Assembly (NCBI GenBank): GCA_964495235.1
Contig: CAZBVD010000003.1
Location: forward strand, 1 to 24,994
Direction: 5' to 3'
Source of the DNA: an uncultured Dysgonomonadaceae bacterium
GTDB lineage: Bacteria; Bacteroidota; Bacteroidia; Bacteroidales; Dysgonomonadaceae
Length of the DNA: 24,994 bases
A program made the position numbers and the translations under genes. The notes below the pieces were generated by a model, which was not told the origin of the DNA, did no database searches, and saw nothing but the letters and a program-made list of their open reading frames with translations. Positions 13,062-16,754 of this stretch are shown here, piece by piece. Position 1 is the first letter of the stretch. The number at the start of each line of letters is the position of its first letter.

Positions 13062-14534
13062 ATGACACAACAATTGGTTATTTATAATACGCTCAGTCGC
13101 GAAAAAGAAGTTTTTAAACCCTTGCATCCAACTCATGTTGGGTTGTATGTATGTGGTCCAACAGTATATGGCGACCCACATTTGGGGCACGCTCGTCCAG
13201 CAATAACATTTGATTTACTATTCCGCTATTTGCAACACATTGGCTACAAAGTGCGCTATGTGCGCAATATTACCGATGTGGGTCATCTGGAAAATGATGC
13301 AGATGAGGGTGAAGATAAAATTGGCAAGAAAGCACGCCTTGAAGAGTTAGAGCCCATGGAGGTGGTGCAGTTTTACACCAATAGTTATCATAAGGCAATG
13401 GACTCTCTTAATGTGTTGCGCCCTTCTATAGAGCCAAGTGCTTCGGGTCATGTGATGGAACAAATAGAGATGACACAAGATATACTTGACAAAGGCTTTG
13501 CATACGAAAGCAATGGGTCGGTATATTTTGATGTTGAAAAATATAACAATGCACACAACTATGGCATTTTGTCTCGCAGAGATATTGATGAGTTGTTGGA
13601 GTCTACACGTGAACTTGACGGACAAGATGAAAAACGGAGAAGAGCCGACTTTGCACTCTGGAAAAAAGCATCGCCCGAACATATTATGCGTTGGAAAGCA
13701 CCTTGGAGTGTGGGTTTTCCGGGATGGCACATTGAGTGCTCCGTAATGAGTACACGCTACTTGGGCAATGAGTTTGATATTCATGGTGGTGGACTCGATT
13801 TATTGTTTCCTCATCACGAGTGCGAAATAGCGCAGAACACTGTAGTTAATGGCAAACCATCGGTTCGTTACTGGATGCATAATAATATGATTACTGTAAA
13901 CGGAACAAAAATGGGCAAGTCGATGGGTAATTTCATCAACCTCGAGGAGTTTTTTAACGGCACTCATCGCCTCTTAGACAAAGCCTATGAGCCAATGACT
14001 ATTCGTTTCTTTATATTGCAATCGCACTATAGAAGTATCGTCGATTTTAGTGTTGATGCTTTGCATGCTGCAGAGGTTGCACTTAAAAGATTGCTAGATG
14101 CATCAAACCATATTGCCAATATACCTGTAAGCGATGCTTCAACTGTTGAGGTAAAAGAATTGCGTCAGAAATGCTACGATGCAATGAACGACGATCTGAA
14201 CACACCCATAGTGCTTTCGCACTTGTTTGAAGCTACACGCATAATTAACTCTGCAATTGCTGGTATAGAAAAGCTATCGCAAGAAGATTTGGATGAATTA
14301 ACCGAACTGTTCAAGATATTCTTACACGAATTGCTAGGCATTGAAGACAGATCTGCACTAAAAGACAGCAACTACGAAGCTTTTAAAAAAGCTGTGAATA
14401 TGTTGTTGGAGATGAGACAAGAGGCCAAATTGAACAAAGACTGGGCTACATCGGATAAAATTCGTGACGACCTTACTAAAGCAGGGTTTGTTATAAAAGA
14501 CACAGCTACAGGATTTGAGTGGAGTTTGGCGTAA
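13062..14534 (+). CDS. cysS: Cysteine--tRNA ligase
   Basis: [18 protein letters not shown] (HIGH), [48 protein letters not shown] (KMSKS), and C-terminal [11 protein letters not shown] anticodon-binding helix. Confidence 0.99.
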
Positions 14535-14538
14535 TTGA

Positions 14539-14589
14539 GAGTTAAAAGATAATACTTCGACAAGCTTAGTAACCGTAAGTTAAAAGTTG
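14539..14589 (+). repeat. 51-bp dispersed repeat (tacttcgacaagctYagtaacc core), inverted relative to 24729-24779
   Basis: 47/51 identity to the reverse complement of 24729-24779. Confidence 0.9.
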
Positions 14590-14601
14590 CAACGTAGTGA
14601 A

Positions 14602-15010
14602 TAATACCACCCCTTTCGGGGTTTGGGTAACTCTTAATTGACGTATTACTATAATAATGTCAGCCCTCTGGGCTTTCAAGCAGAAACCTTATTGGGGCGA
14701 TAAAATTATTGTATTAATATAACTCCAAGAGTGGGGTTGTCATTTTAGCATTTTAGAAATATAAGAACAACAGAACCCCTACAAAGGTGCAGTTATTGTA
14801 GCATTTGTTGATATAAGAATAACAGAAACCCCGCAAAGGATGTAATTATTATAGCATTAGGTGATATAAAAAAACAGAAACCCCGCAAGGGGTGTAATTA
14901 TTATAGTATTTGGTATTATATAATTAACAGAACCCCGCAAGGGGTGATATTATTATAGCAATCAATGATATAAGAGCAACATAAACCTCACAAGGGGTGG
15001 CATTATTAAA
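14602..15010. repeat. Left hairpin array of the TnpA locus (REP/BIME-like)
   Basis: Two reverse-oriented hairpins (14609-14622, 14662-14674), two degenerate units, then forward units at 14771, 14823, 14875, 14928 and 14980 (period 52-53 bp). Core cagaaACCCC-gcaa-GGGGTg followed by an AT-rich TATTATAGCA linker. Confidence 0.93.
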
Positions 15011-15021
15011 ACAAATCTATC

Positions 15022-15486
15022 ATGCCCAGAACATTTTCACAAATTTATGTACAAGTGGTTTTTGCTGTACAAGGCAGACACAATCTAATTGGTAAATCTT
15101 GGAAAGATGAACTGAATAAATACATATCAGGTATTATAACTAATAAAGGACAAAAGTCAATCATTGTAAATGGAATGCCTGACCATATACATGCCTTTAT
15201 TGGATTAAAACCTTCTATGGCTGTTTCAGACTTGGTTAGGGATATTAAAAACAATTCCTCAAATTTTATCAATAAAAATAGATTTGTAAAAGGTCGTTTT
15301 GCATGGCAAGAAAGTTTTGGTTCATTTTCATATTCACACTCGCATATTGAACAGGTTTATAATTATATCCTCAATCAAGAACAACATCATCAAAAGAAGA
15401 CATTTAAAGAGGAGTATTTTGAATTCCTTGACAAATTTCAAATTGAGTTTGATGAAAAGCATTTATTTGATTGGATAGAAGAGTAA
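15022..15486 (+). CDS. HUH/Y1 tyrosine transposase (IS200/IS605 TnpA-like or REP-associated), no TnpB partner
   Basis: 154 aa. HUH motif MPDHIH, VRDIKNNSS, FAWQESFGSFS, catalytic YILNQ (YxxxQ). Confidence 0.92.
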   Translation: MPRTFSQIYVQVVFAVQGRHNLIGKSWKDELNKYISGIITNKGQKSIIVNGMPDHIHAFIGLKPSMAVSDLVRDIKNNSSNFINKNRFVKGRFAWQESFGSFSYSHSHIEQVYNYILNQEQHHQKKTFKEEYFEFLDKFQIEFDEKHLFDWIEE

Positions 15487-15840
15487 TGCCACCCCTTGTG
15501 GGGTTTGGGTAACTCTTAATTGACGTATTACTATAATAATGTCAGCCCTCTGGGCTTTAAATTGAGAGACCATGTAATAATTTTTAGTCATATTTCTGAC
15601 AACGGTGTTTGTGTTATAAGATAACTTTGTAGAGAACAAGTTTATTGCATCAAGATAACCCCCAAGAGTAGGGCAATTATCGCAGCATTTGTTGATATTA
15701 GAATAACAGAAACCCCGCAAAGGATGTAATTATTATAGTATTAGGTGATATAAAAAAACAGAAACCCCGCAAGGGGTAATATTATTATAGCAATCAATGA
15801 TATAAGAGCAACAAGAACCCCATAAGGGGTGATATTATAA
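15484..15840. repeat. Right hairpin array of the TnpA locus
   Basis: Two reverse-oriented hairpins (15491-15504, 15544-15556), about 95 nt of unique sequence, then units at ~15655, 15707, 15759 and 15812. Blocks are near-identical to the left array. Confidence 0.93.
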
Positions 15841-15887
15841 AATGAGCTCTATTCTTATTAAACAGCAACTTTAATATATTTGTATTT

Positions 15888-16691
15888 ATGCAACTACTGC
15901 TCTCCCCCGCTAAACTGATGAGTTTTAAAGATAAAACAGAATCTGTGACAGGAGCAACCCCTCTGTTTACAGATAAAACAAAACACTTGGTAGAGTTTTG
16001 TCAACAGTTATCGGTAAACGAAATTGCAAAGCTGCTAAAGGTAAACGTGAAGATGGCACACGAGGTGTATGGCCAGTTTCAGACGTTTCATTTAGATAAT
16101 GATGTGGAGCGCAGCGCGGCTTTCACATTCAATGGTATTGCTTATCAAGGACTCAATATTCATGATATGTCAGCCTCAGAATTGCAGTTTACACAAGAGC
16201 ACCTCAACATTCTATCGGGTATGTACGGATTGTTGCGACCTCTTGATACAATTAAGCCCTATCGGTTGGATATGAACACACGTATATCTCCTGATGATGG
16301 CATCAACAGTAGTGACAATCTAAACACCACCTATCCAAAATCTAACTATTTGTATGGATATTGGCAAGAGACTGTTAATAACTATCTGTCTGAAAAGCTG
16401 AATGATGACGATAATATAATTATCAATCTTAGCTCCTCAGAGTATTACAAGCTTATTGTGCCCACACTTCTACCCAGTAAAACAAGGATGATAAATATTG
16501 CTTTTAAAGAGCAAAAAACCGATGGCTTGAAACAAGTAGTAGTGTATGCAAAGAAAGCACGCGGAATGATGGCGCGCTATATTATCAAAAACAAAATCAC
16601 CAAGGTTGAAGATATTAAAGGGTTCGATATGGAAGGATATTTCTATTCTCCCGCCCAATCTTCTCCTGCCCAGTGGACGTTTGTAAGATAG
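15888..16691 (+). CDS. yaaA: YaaA / UPF0246 peroxide-stress DNA-binding protein
   Basis: LLSPAKLM, FNGIAYQGL, ILSGMYGLLRPLDTIKPYRLDM, IINLSSSEY, YAKKARGMMARYI. Confidence 0.93.
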   Translation: MQLLLSPAKLMSFKDKTESVTGATPLFTDKTKHLVEFCQQLSVNEIAKLLKVNVKMAHEVYGQFQTFHLDNDVERSAAFTFNGIAYQGLNIHDMSASELQFTQEHLNILSGMYGLLRPLDTIKPYRLDMNTRISPDDGINSSDNLNTTYPKSNYLYGYWQETVNNYLSEKLNDDDNIIINLSSSEYYKLIVPTLLPSKTRMINIAFKEQKTDGLKQVVVYAKKARGMMARYIIKNKITKVEDIKGFDMEGYFYSPAQSSPAQWTFVR

Positions 16692-16754
16692 TATTGCAAC
16701 TGTCTTTTCTATGAAATAATAGTTCTATTCTTCATCTATATCCTTACAATAATT

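Follow-up and report, generated by a model that had tools for sequence, protein, structure and literature searches.

The 24,994-nucleotide stretch of DNA analysed here, called the window below, comes from an uncultured Bacteroidales bacterium (contig CAZBVD010000003.1 of GenBank assembly GCA_964495235.1) and carries between cysS and yaaA a gene for a HUH/Y1 transposase-like protein, tnpA, flanked on both sides by blocks of short hairpins. tnpA is the sole intact open reading frame (ORF) in this interval. It encodes 154 amino acids (aa), matches the Pfam family Y1_Tnp (PF01797) over profile positions 2-121 of 121 with 87.9 bits (cut-off 23; E 7e-25), and contains the motifs DHIH, WQ and YILNQEQHH. 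No TnpB gene adjoins it, its neighbours being cysS and yaaA, which agrees with an initial reading made from the letters alone (hereafter the sequence-only reading) that had described an intact TnpA-like gene without TnpB. Since one independent ENA contig is 100% identical over 14228-15518, and a second, 95% identical, is colinear over 14670-16692 with only four gap positions, we regard the locus as real and not as an assembly artefact. The features are listed below, the flanking genes last; relatives' genomes are given as G numbers, G000 being that of the window.

14599-14679, minus strand: left inverted doublet, with hairpins H1 (ACCCC-TTTC-GGGGT, 14609-14622) and H2 (AGCCC-TCT-GGGCT, 14662-14674) 53 nt apart
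14680-14758, plus strand: two decayed forward units (read from the sequence; repeat family D5)
14759-15015, plus strand: five forward units of 52-53 bp (Tandem Repeats Finder period 52; profile matches 1e-12 to 2e-15)
15022-15486, plus strand: tnpA, HUH/Y1 single-strand-DNA transposase-like protein assigned to subclass 1.2, 154 aa (Pfam, NCBIfam, an alignment of 29 homologues, AlphaFold, and the ratio of non-synonymous to synonymous substitution rates, dN/dS)
15481-15561, minus strand: right inverted doublet, H1 at 15491-15504 and H2 at 15544-15556, its flank overlapping the final codons of tnpA, stop codon included
15562-15659, no strand: spacer of about 100 nt in which no clear units are seen; the spacer of a tnpA-less remnant in G011 is homologous to it (sequence comparison)
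15660-15857, plus strand: four forward units, the first decayed, with perfect hairpins at 15764-15777 and 15817-15830 (Tandem Repeats Finder, 2.8 copies)
13062-14534, plus strand: cysS (cysteinyl-tRNA synthetase), left flank, outside the element (Pfam tRNA-synt_1e, 2e-104; adjacency to yaaA kept in relatives)
15888-16691, plus strand: yaaA (peroxide stress protein family), right flank, outside the element (Pfam H2O2_YaaD, 1e-72)

Tandem Repeats Finder recovered a 52-bp period both upstream of tnpA (14759-15008, 4.8 copies) and downstream of it (15693-15838, 2.8 copies), and a search with a profile of the unit identified 12 units at E<0.001 in the locus, which with two to three decayed ones give about 15 in total. 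The sequence-only reading had likewise counted about 15 hairpins in 52-bp arrays; the count and the period hold, but the arrays are less uniform than it implied, because they include inverted doublets and only six hairpins are perfect ACCCC-N4-GGGGT, the others being variant or decayed. From left to right, the order is an inverted doublet, seven forward units (two of them decayed), tnpA, an inverted doublet, the spacer and four forward units. Each doublet consists of two unlike hairpins, H1 (ACCCC-N4-GGGGT) and H2 (AGCCC-N3-GGGCT), and opens a block in which the forward units come next. Within the array at 14759-15015, hairpins are perfect at 14880-14893 and 14932-14945, have a G-T variant at 14985-14998, and show decayed stems near 14776 and 14828.

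The two blocks are largely copies of each other. The left doublet (minus-strand profile matches of 1.8e-12 and 5e-4) is a copy of the doublet 3' of tnpA, the two lying in an 81-nt direct repeat (14599-14679 and 15481-15561, 94% identical, 882 bp apart) detected by the repeat finder, and the same doublet is also present in G003, G006, G008, G011 and G022. The right array repeats the left one but is a unit shorter, as indicated by the repeat finder and by unit-by-unit comparison: 15660-15857 is paralogous to 14776-15015 with one unit fewer (repeat D1, 161 nt, 83% identity), and this copy stops at the point that corresponds to the junction of the left block with the tnpA ATG. tnpA is also bracketed by a 66-nt inverted repeat (14940-15005 and 15484-15549, 79%), which overlaps the stop codon and whose left arm is the last unit of the array at 14759-15015. 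The sequence left of the left doublet was considered as a possible remnant of the tnpA 3' end and rejected, as it is mostly the conserved flank of the unit, TATAATAAT-NN-C.

Conservation of the hairpin unit

The consensus of 48 units from six genomes is A-ACCCC-G(N)NA-GGGGT-G-NN-ATTATTATAG, in which a GC stem of 5 bp encloses a G(N)NA loop and is followed on its 3' side by a conserved flank, TG-NN-ATTATTATAG. This consensus has neither a GTAG nor a CGTC tetranucleotide tag at the hairpin foot, in agreement with the sequence-only reading, which had seen no obvious tag of the REP type. Stems are fully paired in 41 of the 48 units and come in five complementary forms (ACCCC/GGGGT, AGCCC/GGGCT, ACCTC/GAGGT, ACTCC/GGAGT and ATCCC/GGGAT), implying four independent double, compensatory changes. 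Full pairing was retained by 16 of the 23 variant units, compared with a mean of 5.0 when the arms were shuffled, and a value of 16 was reached in 0 of 2000 shuffles. The pair counts were obtained with a script anchored on the right arm; a MAFFT alignment puts 3-nt and 4-nt loops out of register. Pairing has been kept even though synonymous sites among these genomes are saturated (dS >1.3, synonymous substitutions per site). Judged by this covariation, the hairpin structure is selected.

The hairpins exceed chance expectation: those with a GC-rich 5-bp stem have a density of 9.0 per kb in the non-coding DNA of the locus compared with 0.30 per kb genome-wide, a 30-fold enrichment, and nine terminator-like hairpins were observed on both strands where 0.8 would be expected. 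The units could be mainly RNA or transcription signals, such as stacked weak terminators or insulators that shield tnpA and yaaA against read-through, structures in the 5' untranslated region, or processed small RNAs as suggested by the sequence-only reading, in which case the hairpins would be linked to the enzyme through regulation and would not be its substrate. The terminator-like sites fit such a role, as do the GNRA-type loops that the sense strand carries upstream of tnpA and the position of the proximal hairpin, 8-40 nt from the ATG in many loci. There is also precedent in Salmonella, whose IS200 has a terminator hairpin at its left end and a stem occluding the ribosome-binding site. 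Secondary structure of the mRNA is described as suppressing IS200 transposition (PMC4513863). However, the stems are of 5 bp only (about -5 kcal/mol), both orientations of the unit are found on each side of tnpA, and a terminator role leaves the conserved 13-nt flank unexplained. Furthermore, HUH/Y1 enzymes are known binders of hairpins in single-stranded DNA, and an Rfam search of 14400-16000 with E values up to 10 returned no family match, the best hit being CRISPR-DR21 (23.9 bits against a gathering threshold of 48; E 0.26). We consider it improbable that the hairpins serve primarily as RNA signals.

Protein class of TnpA

TnpA scores 64.9 bits against the NCBIfam IS200 model NF033573 (cut-off 55) and 28.4 bits against the REP_Tyr_transpos model NF047646 (cut-off 80), which bears out the earlier view that its YxxxQ motif is IS200-like and not that of a RAYT (tyrosine transposase associated with repetitive extragenic palindromes, REPs). 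Scores with the IS200 model are bimodal across 81 genomes of the same order, with classical elements at 96-147 bits and the group of tnpA at 40-81 bits. In a maximum-likelihood tree with classical IS200 elements from same-order genomes and E. coli RayT (from NC_000913.3) as references, class 2, comprising RayT and three genes from the window's own genome, is split from class 1 with support of 99/96, and all 29 subclass 1.2 rows lie on the same side of a branch with weak support (55/92). The motif YxxxQxxHH is present in 29 of 29 relatives and residues H55, H57, Y115, Q119, H122 and H123 are invariant; H55, H57, Y115 and Q119 align with residues of ISDra2 TnpA. An AlphaFold2 model of the protein (pLDDT 91.7) has ISDra2, IS608 and archaeal IS200 TnpA structures as its top 29 PDB matches (E down to 1.6e-8), with E. 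coli TnpA-REP (4ER8) ranked 30th.

These traits correspond to TnpA-Y1 subclass 1.2, for which the only description found in the literature searched is the survey of Quentin et al. 2018 (BMC Genomics 19:475; PMC6006769). The survey characterises the subclass by YxxxQxxHH, DH[IV]H and WQ, a length of about 150 aa, a conserved C-terminal tail, a Bacteroidetes host, and few, divergent copies (about 1.7 copies, about 36% identity). The tnpA gene shares the motifs, length, C-terminal tail, low copy number and host group. The survey enters 'no' for secondary structures in subclass 1.2, which it describes as generally without IS200-type ends, whereas the window and most of the relatives examined have conserved double-hairpin inverted ends, often with arrays. 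Because the missing end structures are a descriptive and not a defining trait of the survey, membership stands despite the hairpins, and the conserved hairpin ends and arrays are new for the subclass. By homology, TnpA is a member of subclass 1.2 and neither a RAYT nor a classical multi-copy IS200 transposase.

The window's genome contains three paralogues, which are 35-38% identical, and lacks identical copies. The second subclass 1.2 paralogue lies on the minus strand of contig C141 (148 aa, YVKNQVEHH) and is followed on its 3' side by about 2.5 copies of a 271-bp block of five different hairpins (this region is L002, about 640-1309 of the reverse complement). Each of these repeats begins about 10 nt before the stop codon of the paralogue, and the first letters of the contig itself are the end of such a block. 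The stem GAATCC/GGATTC occurs three times in this block and once on contig C26. Another hairpin array in the window, at 1950-2127 (41-bp period, 4.3 copies), has stems (G)AATCC ... GGATT(C) and, given the occurrences on C141 and C26, may be a detached member of the repeat family of that paralogue. The three class 2 (RAYT-like, YIxxNP) Y1 genes of the same genome are located on contigs C472, C577 and C17 and reach 74, 66 and 28 bits, respectively, with the REP-associated model (cut-off 80).

The package in relatives and at the cysS-yaaA site

Orthologous loci were counted among the best 80 of 303 relatives, one genome having been scanned per species. The encoded proteins are 68-84% identical to TnpA and come from Dysgonamonadaceae, which include the two closest, Chitinophagaceae, Flavobacteriales, Cytophagales, Ignavibacteria and one Nitrospirota bin, with 70-78% identity still found between phyla. 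The unit profile of the window matches beside tnpA in 58 of these 80 loci; the arrays thus accompany the gene across genomes, and the sequence-only reading had named an absence of such a link as grounds against its view. An alignment of 11 simpler loci revealed a compact element of about 700 bp that consists of two forward units, tnpA and two inverted units. The proximal forward unit lies 8-50 nt from the ATG, the inverted units are about 52 nt apart with the first overlapping the tnpA stop codon, and conservation across the aligned loci ends no more than 2-3 nt from where the outermost hairpins have their feet. The tandem units seen in other loci are of the same size. From this alignment the window carries an expanded version of the compact element, and the 52-bp arrays on both sides, as described by the sequence-only reading, are a product of that expansion. 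More distant paralogues have different stems at the same positions, H1 being placed 7-24 nt past the stop codon in most paralogue loci, and a significant inverted bracket is present in 17 of 28. Unit comparison likewise indicates an independent large expansion of the window's unit family in Chitinophagaceae, where a long-read contig (L125, JADJBP010000012.1) encodes a 76% identical orthologue with eight forward units upstream and ten units downstream (one inverted and nine forward). A quick tree of the 81 orthologues is partly clustered by taxon (10 label changes compared with 15.2 when shuffled and a minimum of 3) and places G022 with a Chitinophagales bin, apart from the clade of the window; as this tree is poorly resolved, both slow vertical evolution and occasional transfer are possible.

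cysS and yaaA are adjacent in relatives but the content of the interval between them varies, and the comparison suggested by the sequence-only reading found filled sites, remnants without tnpA, and empty sites. The interval is empty in G001 and G012 of the same genus (about 75-100 bp) and in G022 of the same family (67 bp), and filled in G000 and G003. In G003, cysS is followed by tnpA with its blocks and then, up to the contig end, by an internally deleted tnpA and a further block. G011 retains the last 45 nt of tnpA and a right-type block, the spacer of which is homologous to the right spacer of the window, and G006 has a solo left-type block that shares a decayed AGGAT unit with the window. 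Genuine tnpA remnants are limited to the 45 nt in G011 and the third G003 copy (the first 33 nt and the tail). Based on these interval contents, the ancestor of G000, G003, G006 and G011 probably had a block-tnpA-block arrangement at this site, from which tnpA was lost twice through different deletions. This interval looks like a hot spot of small insertions. That of the congener G005 (L036, 717-1501) contains an unrelated insert with a gene for a 23S_rRNA_IVP protein (136 aa, four-helix-bundle), part of a second copy of this gene and TTGACA-rich direct repeats.

Elsewhere among close relatives, the package occupies other positions. In G022 it takes up all 904 bp that separate hsdS from hsdM in a type I restriction-modification operon and is oriented like the operon (C3, 5433-6336 of L042), and in G008 it adjoins a DUF438/hemerythrin/PAS gene, so that at least three different genomic sites are represented. 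An rve-type integrase gene is situated 2 kb from the package in G022. Presence is patchy within the genus (5 of 12 genomes). Given the number of sites, the two losses of tnpA and the empty site in two congeners, the term 'domesticated' used in the sequence-only reading is too strong. Tandem tnpA-block copies were found in G035 (726 bp, 2.3 copies), G008 (720 bp) and contig C250 of G003 (834-873 bp, three copies).

Arrays also change at the level of single units, as had been suggested: besides the right array being one unit shorter than the left, one metagenome contig agrees with the window throughout, except that exactly one 52-bp unit (14879-14930) is missing from it. The four metagenome runs consist of short contigs from several related strains, and most joints in them were left aside for their short sides or for undetermined letters at the junction; only this exact one-unit skip was used. 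Joints that lead backwards in the sequence (from 15559 to 14799, with 33 other letters between) were considered as evidence of circles and rejected, since they stem from a relative that is abundant and has a shorter spacer. Cleavage sites did not emerge from the borders of tandem units and arrays (G008, G035, C141 and the window), which lie at no constant distance from a hairpin.

The two losses of tnpA, the empty site in two congeners and the decay of several units might indicate a functionless relic in which the arrays are neutral satellite DNA. This is hard to reconcile with the intact ORF and its invariant catalytic residues, with dN/dS values of 0.06-0.11 among orthologues, or with a strain whose DNA has diverged by 5% and which encodes a 100% identical TnpA. 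Stems maintained through compensatory changes and the level of protein identity kept across phyla also contradict it, and we judge decay without function to be highly improbable. On these comparisons the enzyme is under strong purifying selection. Between G000 and G003, which share the site, the non-synonymous divergence (dN) of tnpA (0.088) equals that of cysS (0.084), as expected for vertical descent.

The element could alternatively be an ordinary active IS200-type insertion sequence (IS), with the hairpins as its left and right ends and the arrays and blocks as debris of repeated insertion or excision. TnpA passes the IS200 model, and the compact form has the size of an IS200; close orthologues occupy several sites, occurrence within the genus is patchy, phyla are mixed in places in the orthologue tree, and head-to-tail tandem copies exist. 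The element and its enzyme resemble IS608, ISDra2 and Salmonella IS200 in fold, in the HUH and Tyr-Gln residues, in a length of about 700 bp, in having hairpins at both ends and in the absence of a visible target duplication. However, these elements are present in many identical copies, whereas the window's gene occurs as one copy per lineage. Relatives have 1-7 matches per genome, which are not strict copy numbers, and near-identical copies are in tandem only; no identical dispersed copies were seen in the genomes examined, where paralogues are 35-60% identical. Plasmids almost never carry a match (3 of 72,556 records). Both the equal dN of tnpA and cysS at the shared site and the bimodal IS200-model scores, which put the TnpB-less window gene at 65 bits, below the range of classical elements of the same order, argue against an active IS. 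The ends differ as well: those of IS608, ISDra2 and IS200 have two subterminal hairpins on the same strand with offset cleavage sites 19 nt and 10 nt away, while the ends here are inverted copies with hairpins at their tips. An active IS is in our view unlikely, and the earlier claim that this is not a normal multi-copy IS is upheld.

The hairpins appear to be private to the package. A profile search of the window's whole genome gave strong matches at the tnpA locus only. Each of the six ACCCC-N3-4-GGGGT sites of G022 (99% complete, 50 contigs) lies at its tnpA locus, as do most of those in G003, G006 and G008. On these searches, the units stay within the locus and do not form a dispersed REP-like population, and the repeat counts in the window's own bin are lower bounds. 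The latter follows from four short contigs (C450, C548, C631 and C612; 1-1.7 kb) without a Y1 gene, in which several hairpin types are mixed, such as CACGGGGT-ATAA-ACCCCGTG beside AACCCC-N4-GGGGTG-NC-ATT, and which may be solo blocks scattered through the genome at which the assembly breaks.

Because its hairpins are confined in this way, the system is in the decisive point not REPtron-like, contrary to the proposal of the sequence-only reading, and this is what chiefly sets it apart from REP, BIME and REPIN systems. Similarities to REPtrons (Nunvar 2010; Bertels and Rainey 2011; Ton-Hoang 2012; Bertels 2017, PMC5581495) include a single-copy Y1 gene bracketed by inverted GC hairpins, covariation of hairpin and enzyme lineage, largely vertical descent within families, and variable clusters of units. 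Unlike the REPtron enzymes, the window's protein is class 1, lacks YxxxNP, scores below the NF047646 cut-off and lies across the well-supported (99/96) branch; its hairpins have no GTAG/CGTC tag and do not form a genome-wide population of tens to hundreds, and its arrays are tandem units in the same orientation, in contrast to the alternating bacterial interspersed mosaic elements (BIMEs) of REPtrons.

Possible mechanism and significance

On the basis of the established anatomy, gene-hairpin co-occurrence, stem covariation, site polymorphism and selection, we favour, with some confidence, the reading that a rarely mobile, strongly constrained enzyme has its cognate single-strand-DNA sites in the hairpins, and that the arrays change by slippage, recombination or strand transfer. 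By analogy with IS608, ISDra2 TnpA and E. coli TnpA-REP, we infer that a TnpA dimer would bind the hairpins as single-stranded DNA and cut in or near the conserved flank. In the lineage of the window, forward units have multiplied in 52-bp steps, and a whole block of inverted doublet and forward units is found on both sides of tnpA. Since the two blocks are direct repeats, an exchange between them could delete or duplicate tnpA, whether by unequal recombination, replication slippage or TnpA-catalysed strand transfer between equivalent sites. The deletion products would be the solo blocks in relatives, and the duplication products the tandem copies of 720-726 bp. The dynamics of the arrays may be partly enzyme-driven, beyond slippage and recombination, and the package relocates only rarely and is kept at one copy per lineage per genome.

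Several observations weigh against this reading. The unit profile of the window has no match in 22 of the 80 orthologue loci, and in 11 of the 28 paralogue loci no inverted bracket reaches significance. On three short contigs (1-1.7 kb) of the window's own genome there are sequences weakly related to the unit. Most of the genomes, that of the window included, are fragmented metagenome bins with under-assembled repeats, so that the claim of private hairpins rests mainly on G022. Upstream of tnpA the functional G(N)NA loop lies on the top strand, and downstream of the gene it lies on the bottom strand. Were the loop-bearing strand the substrate, the enzyme would have to process each end on a different strand, which does not agree with the same-strand peel-and-paste mechanism of IS608. 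Finally, slippage and RecA-type recombination would suffice for the changes in the arrays, with no need of an enzyme.

A more far-reaching version is that subclass 1.2 represents a distinct kind of HUH/Y1 element, with inverted double-hairpin ends read on opposite strands and an enzyme that copies or transfers 52-nt cassettes and whole gene-plus-block units between equivalent sites. We offer this tentatively and regard it as doubtful. If true, it would explain the private arrays, the terminal redundancies of 1.x units and the head-to-tail multimers by a mechanism unlike both IS608 peel-and-paste and REPIN dispersal.

New findings here are the series of alleles at a single site, the compact form of 700 bp that ends at the hairpin feet, the direct flanking blocks tied to tnpA loss and to tandem copies, and the strain-level variation in units. 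Subclass 1.2 contains the closest relatives of the IS200 transposases and is common in Bacteroidota. The conserved unit (5-bp stem, G(N)NA loop and TG-NN-ATTATTATAG) provides a concrete oligonucleotide for binding and cleavage assays, and the natural allelic series (filled, two kinds of remnant, empty) together with the tandem multimers tells of the effect of the system on DNA over time. A system placed between a selfish IS and a domesticated system of the REP type bears on how transposases are tamed.

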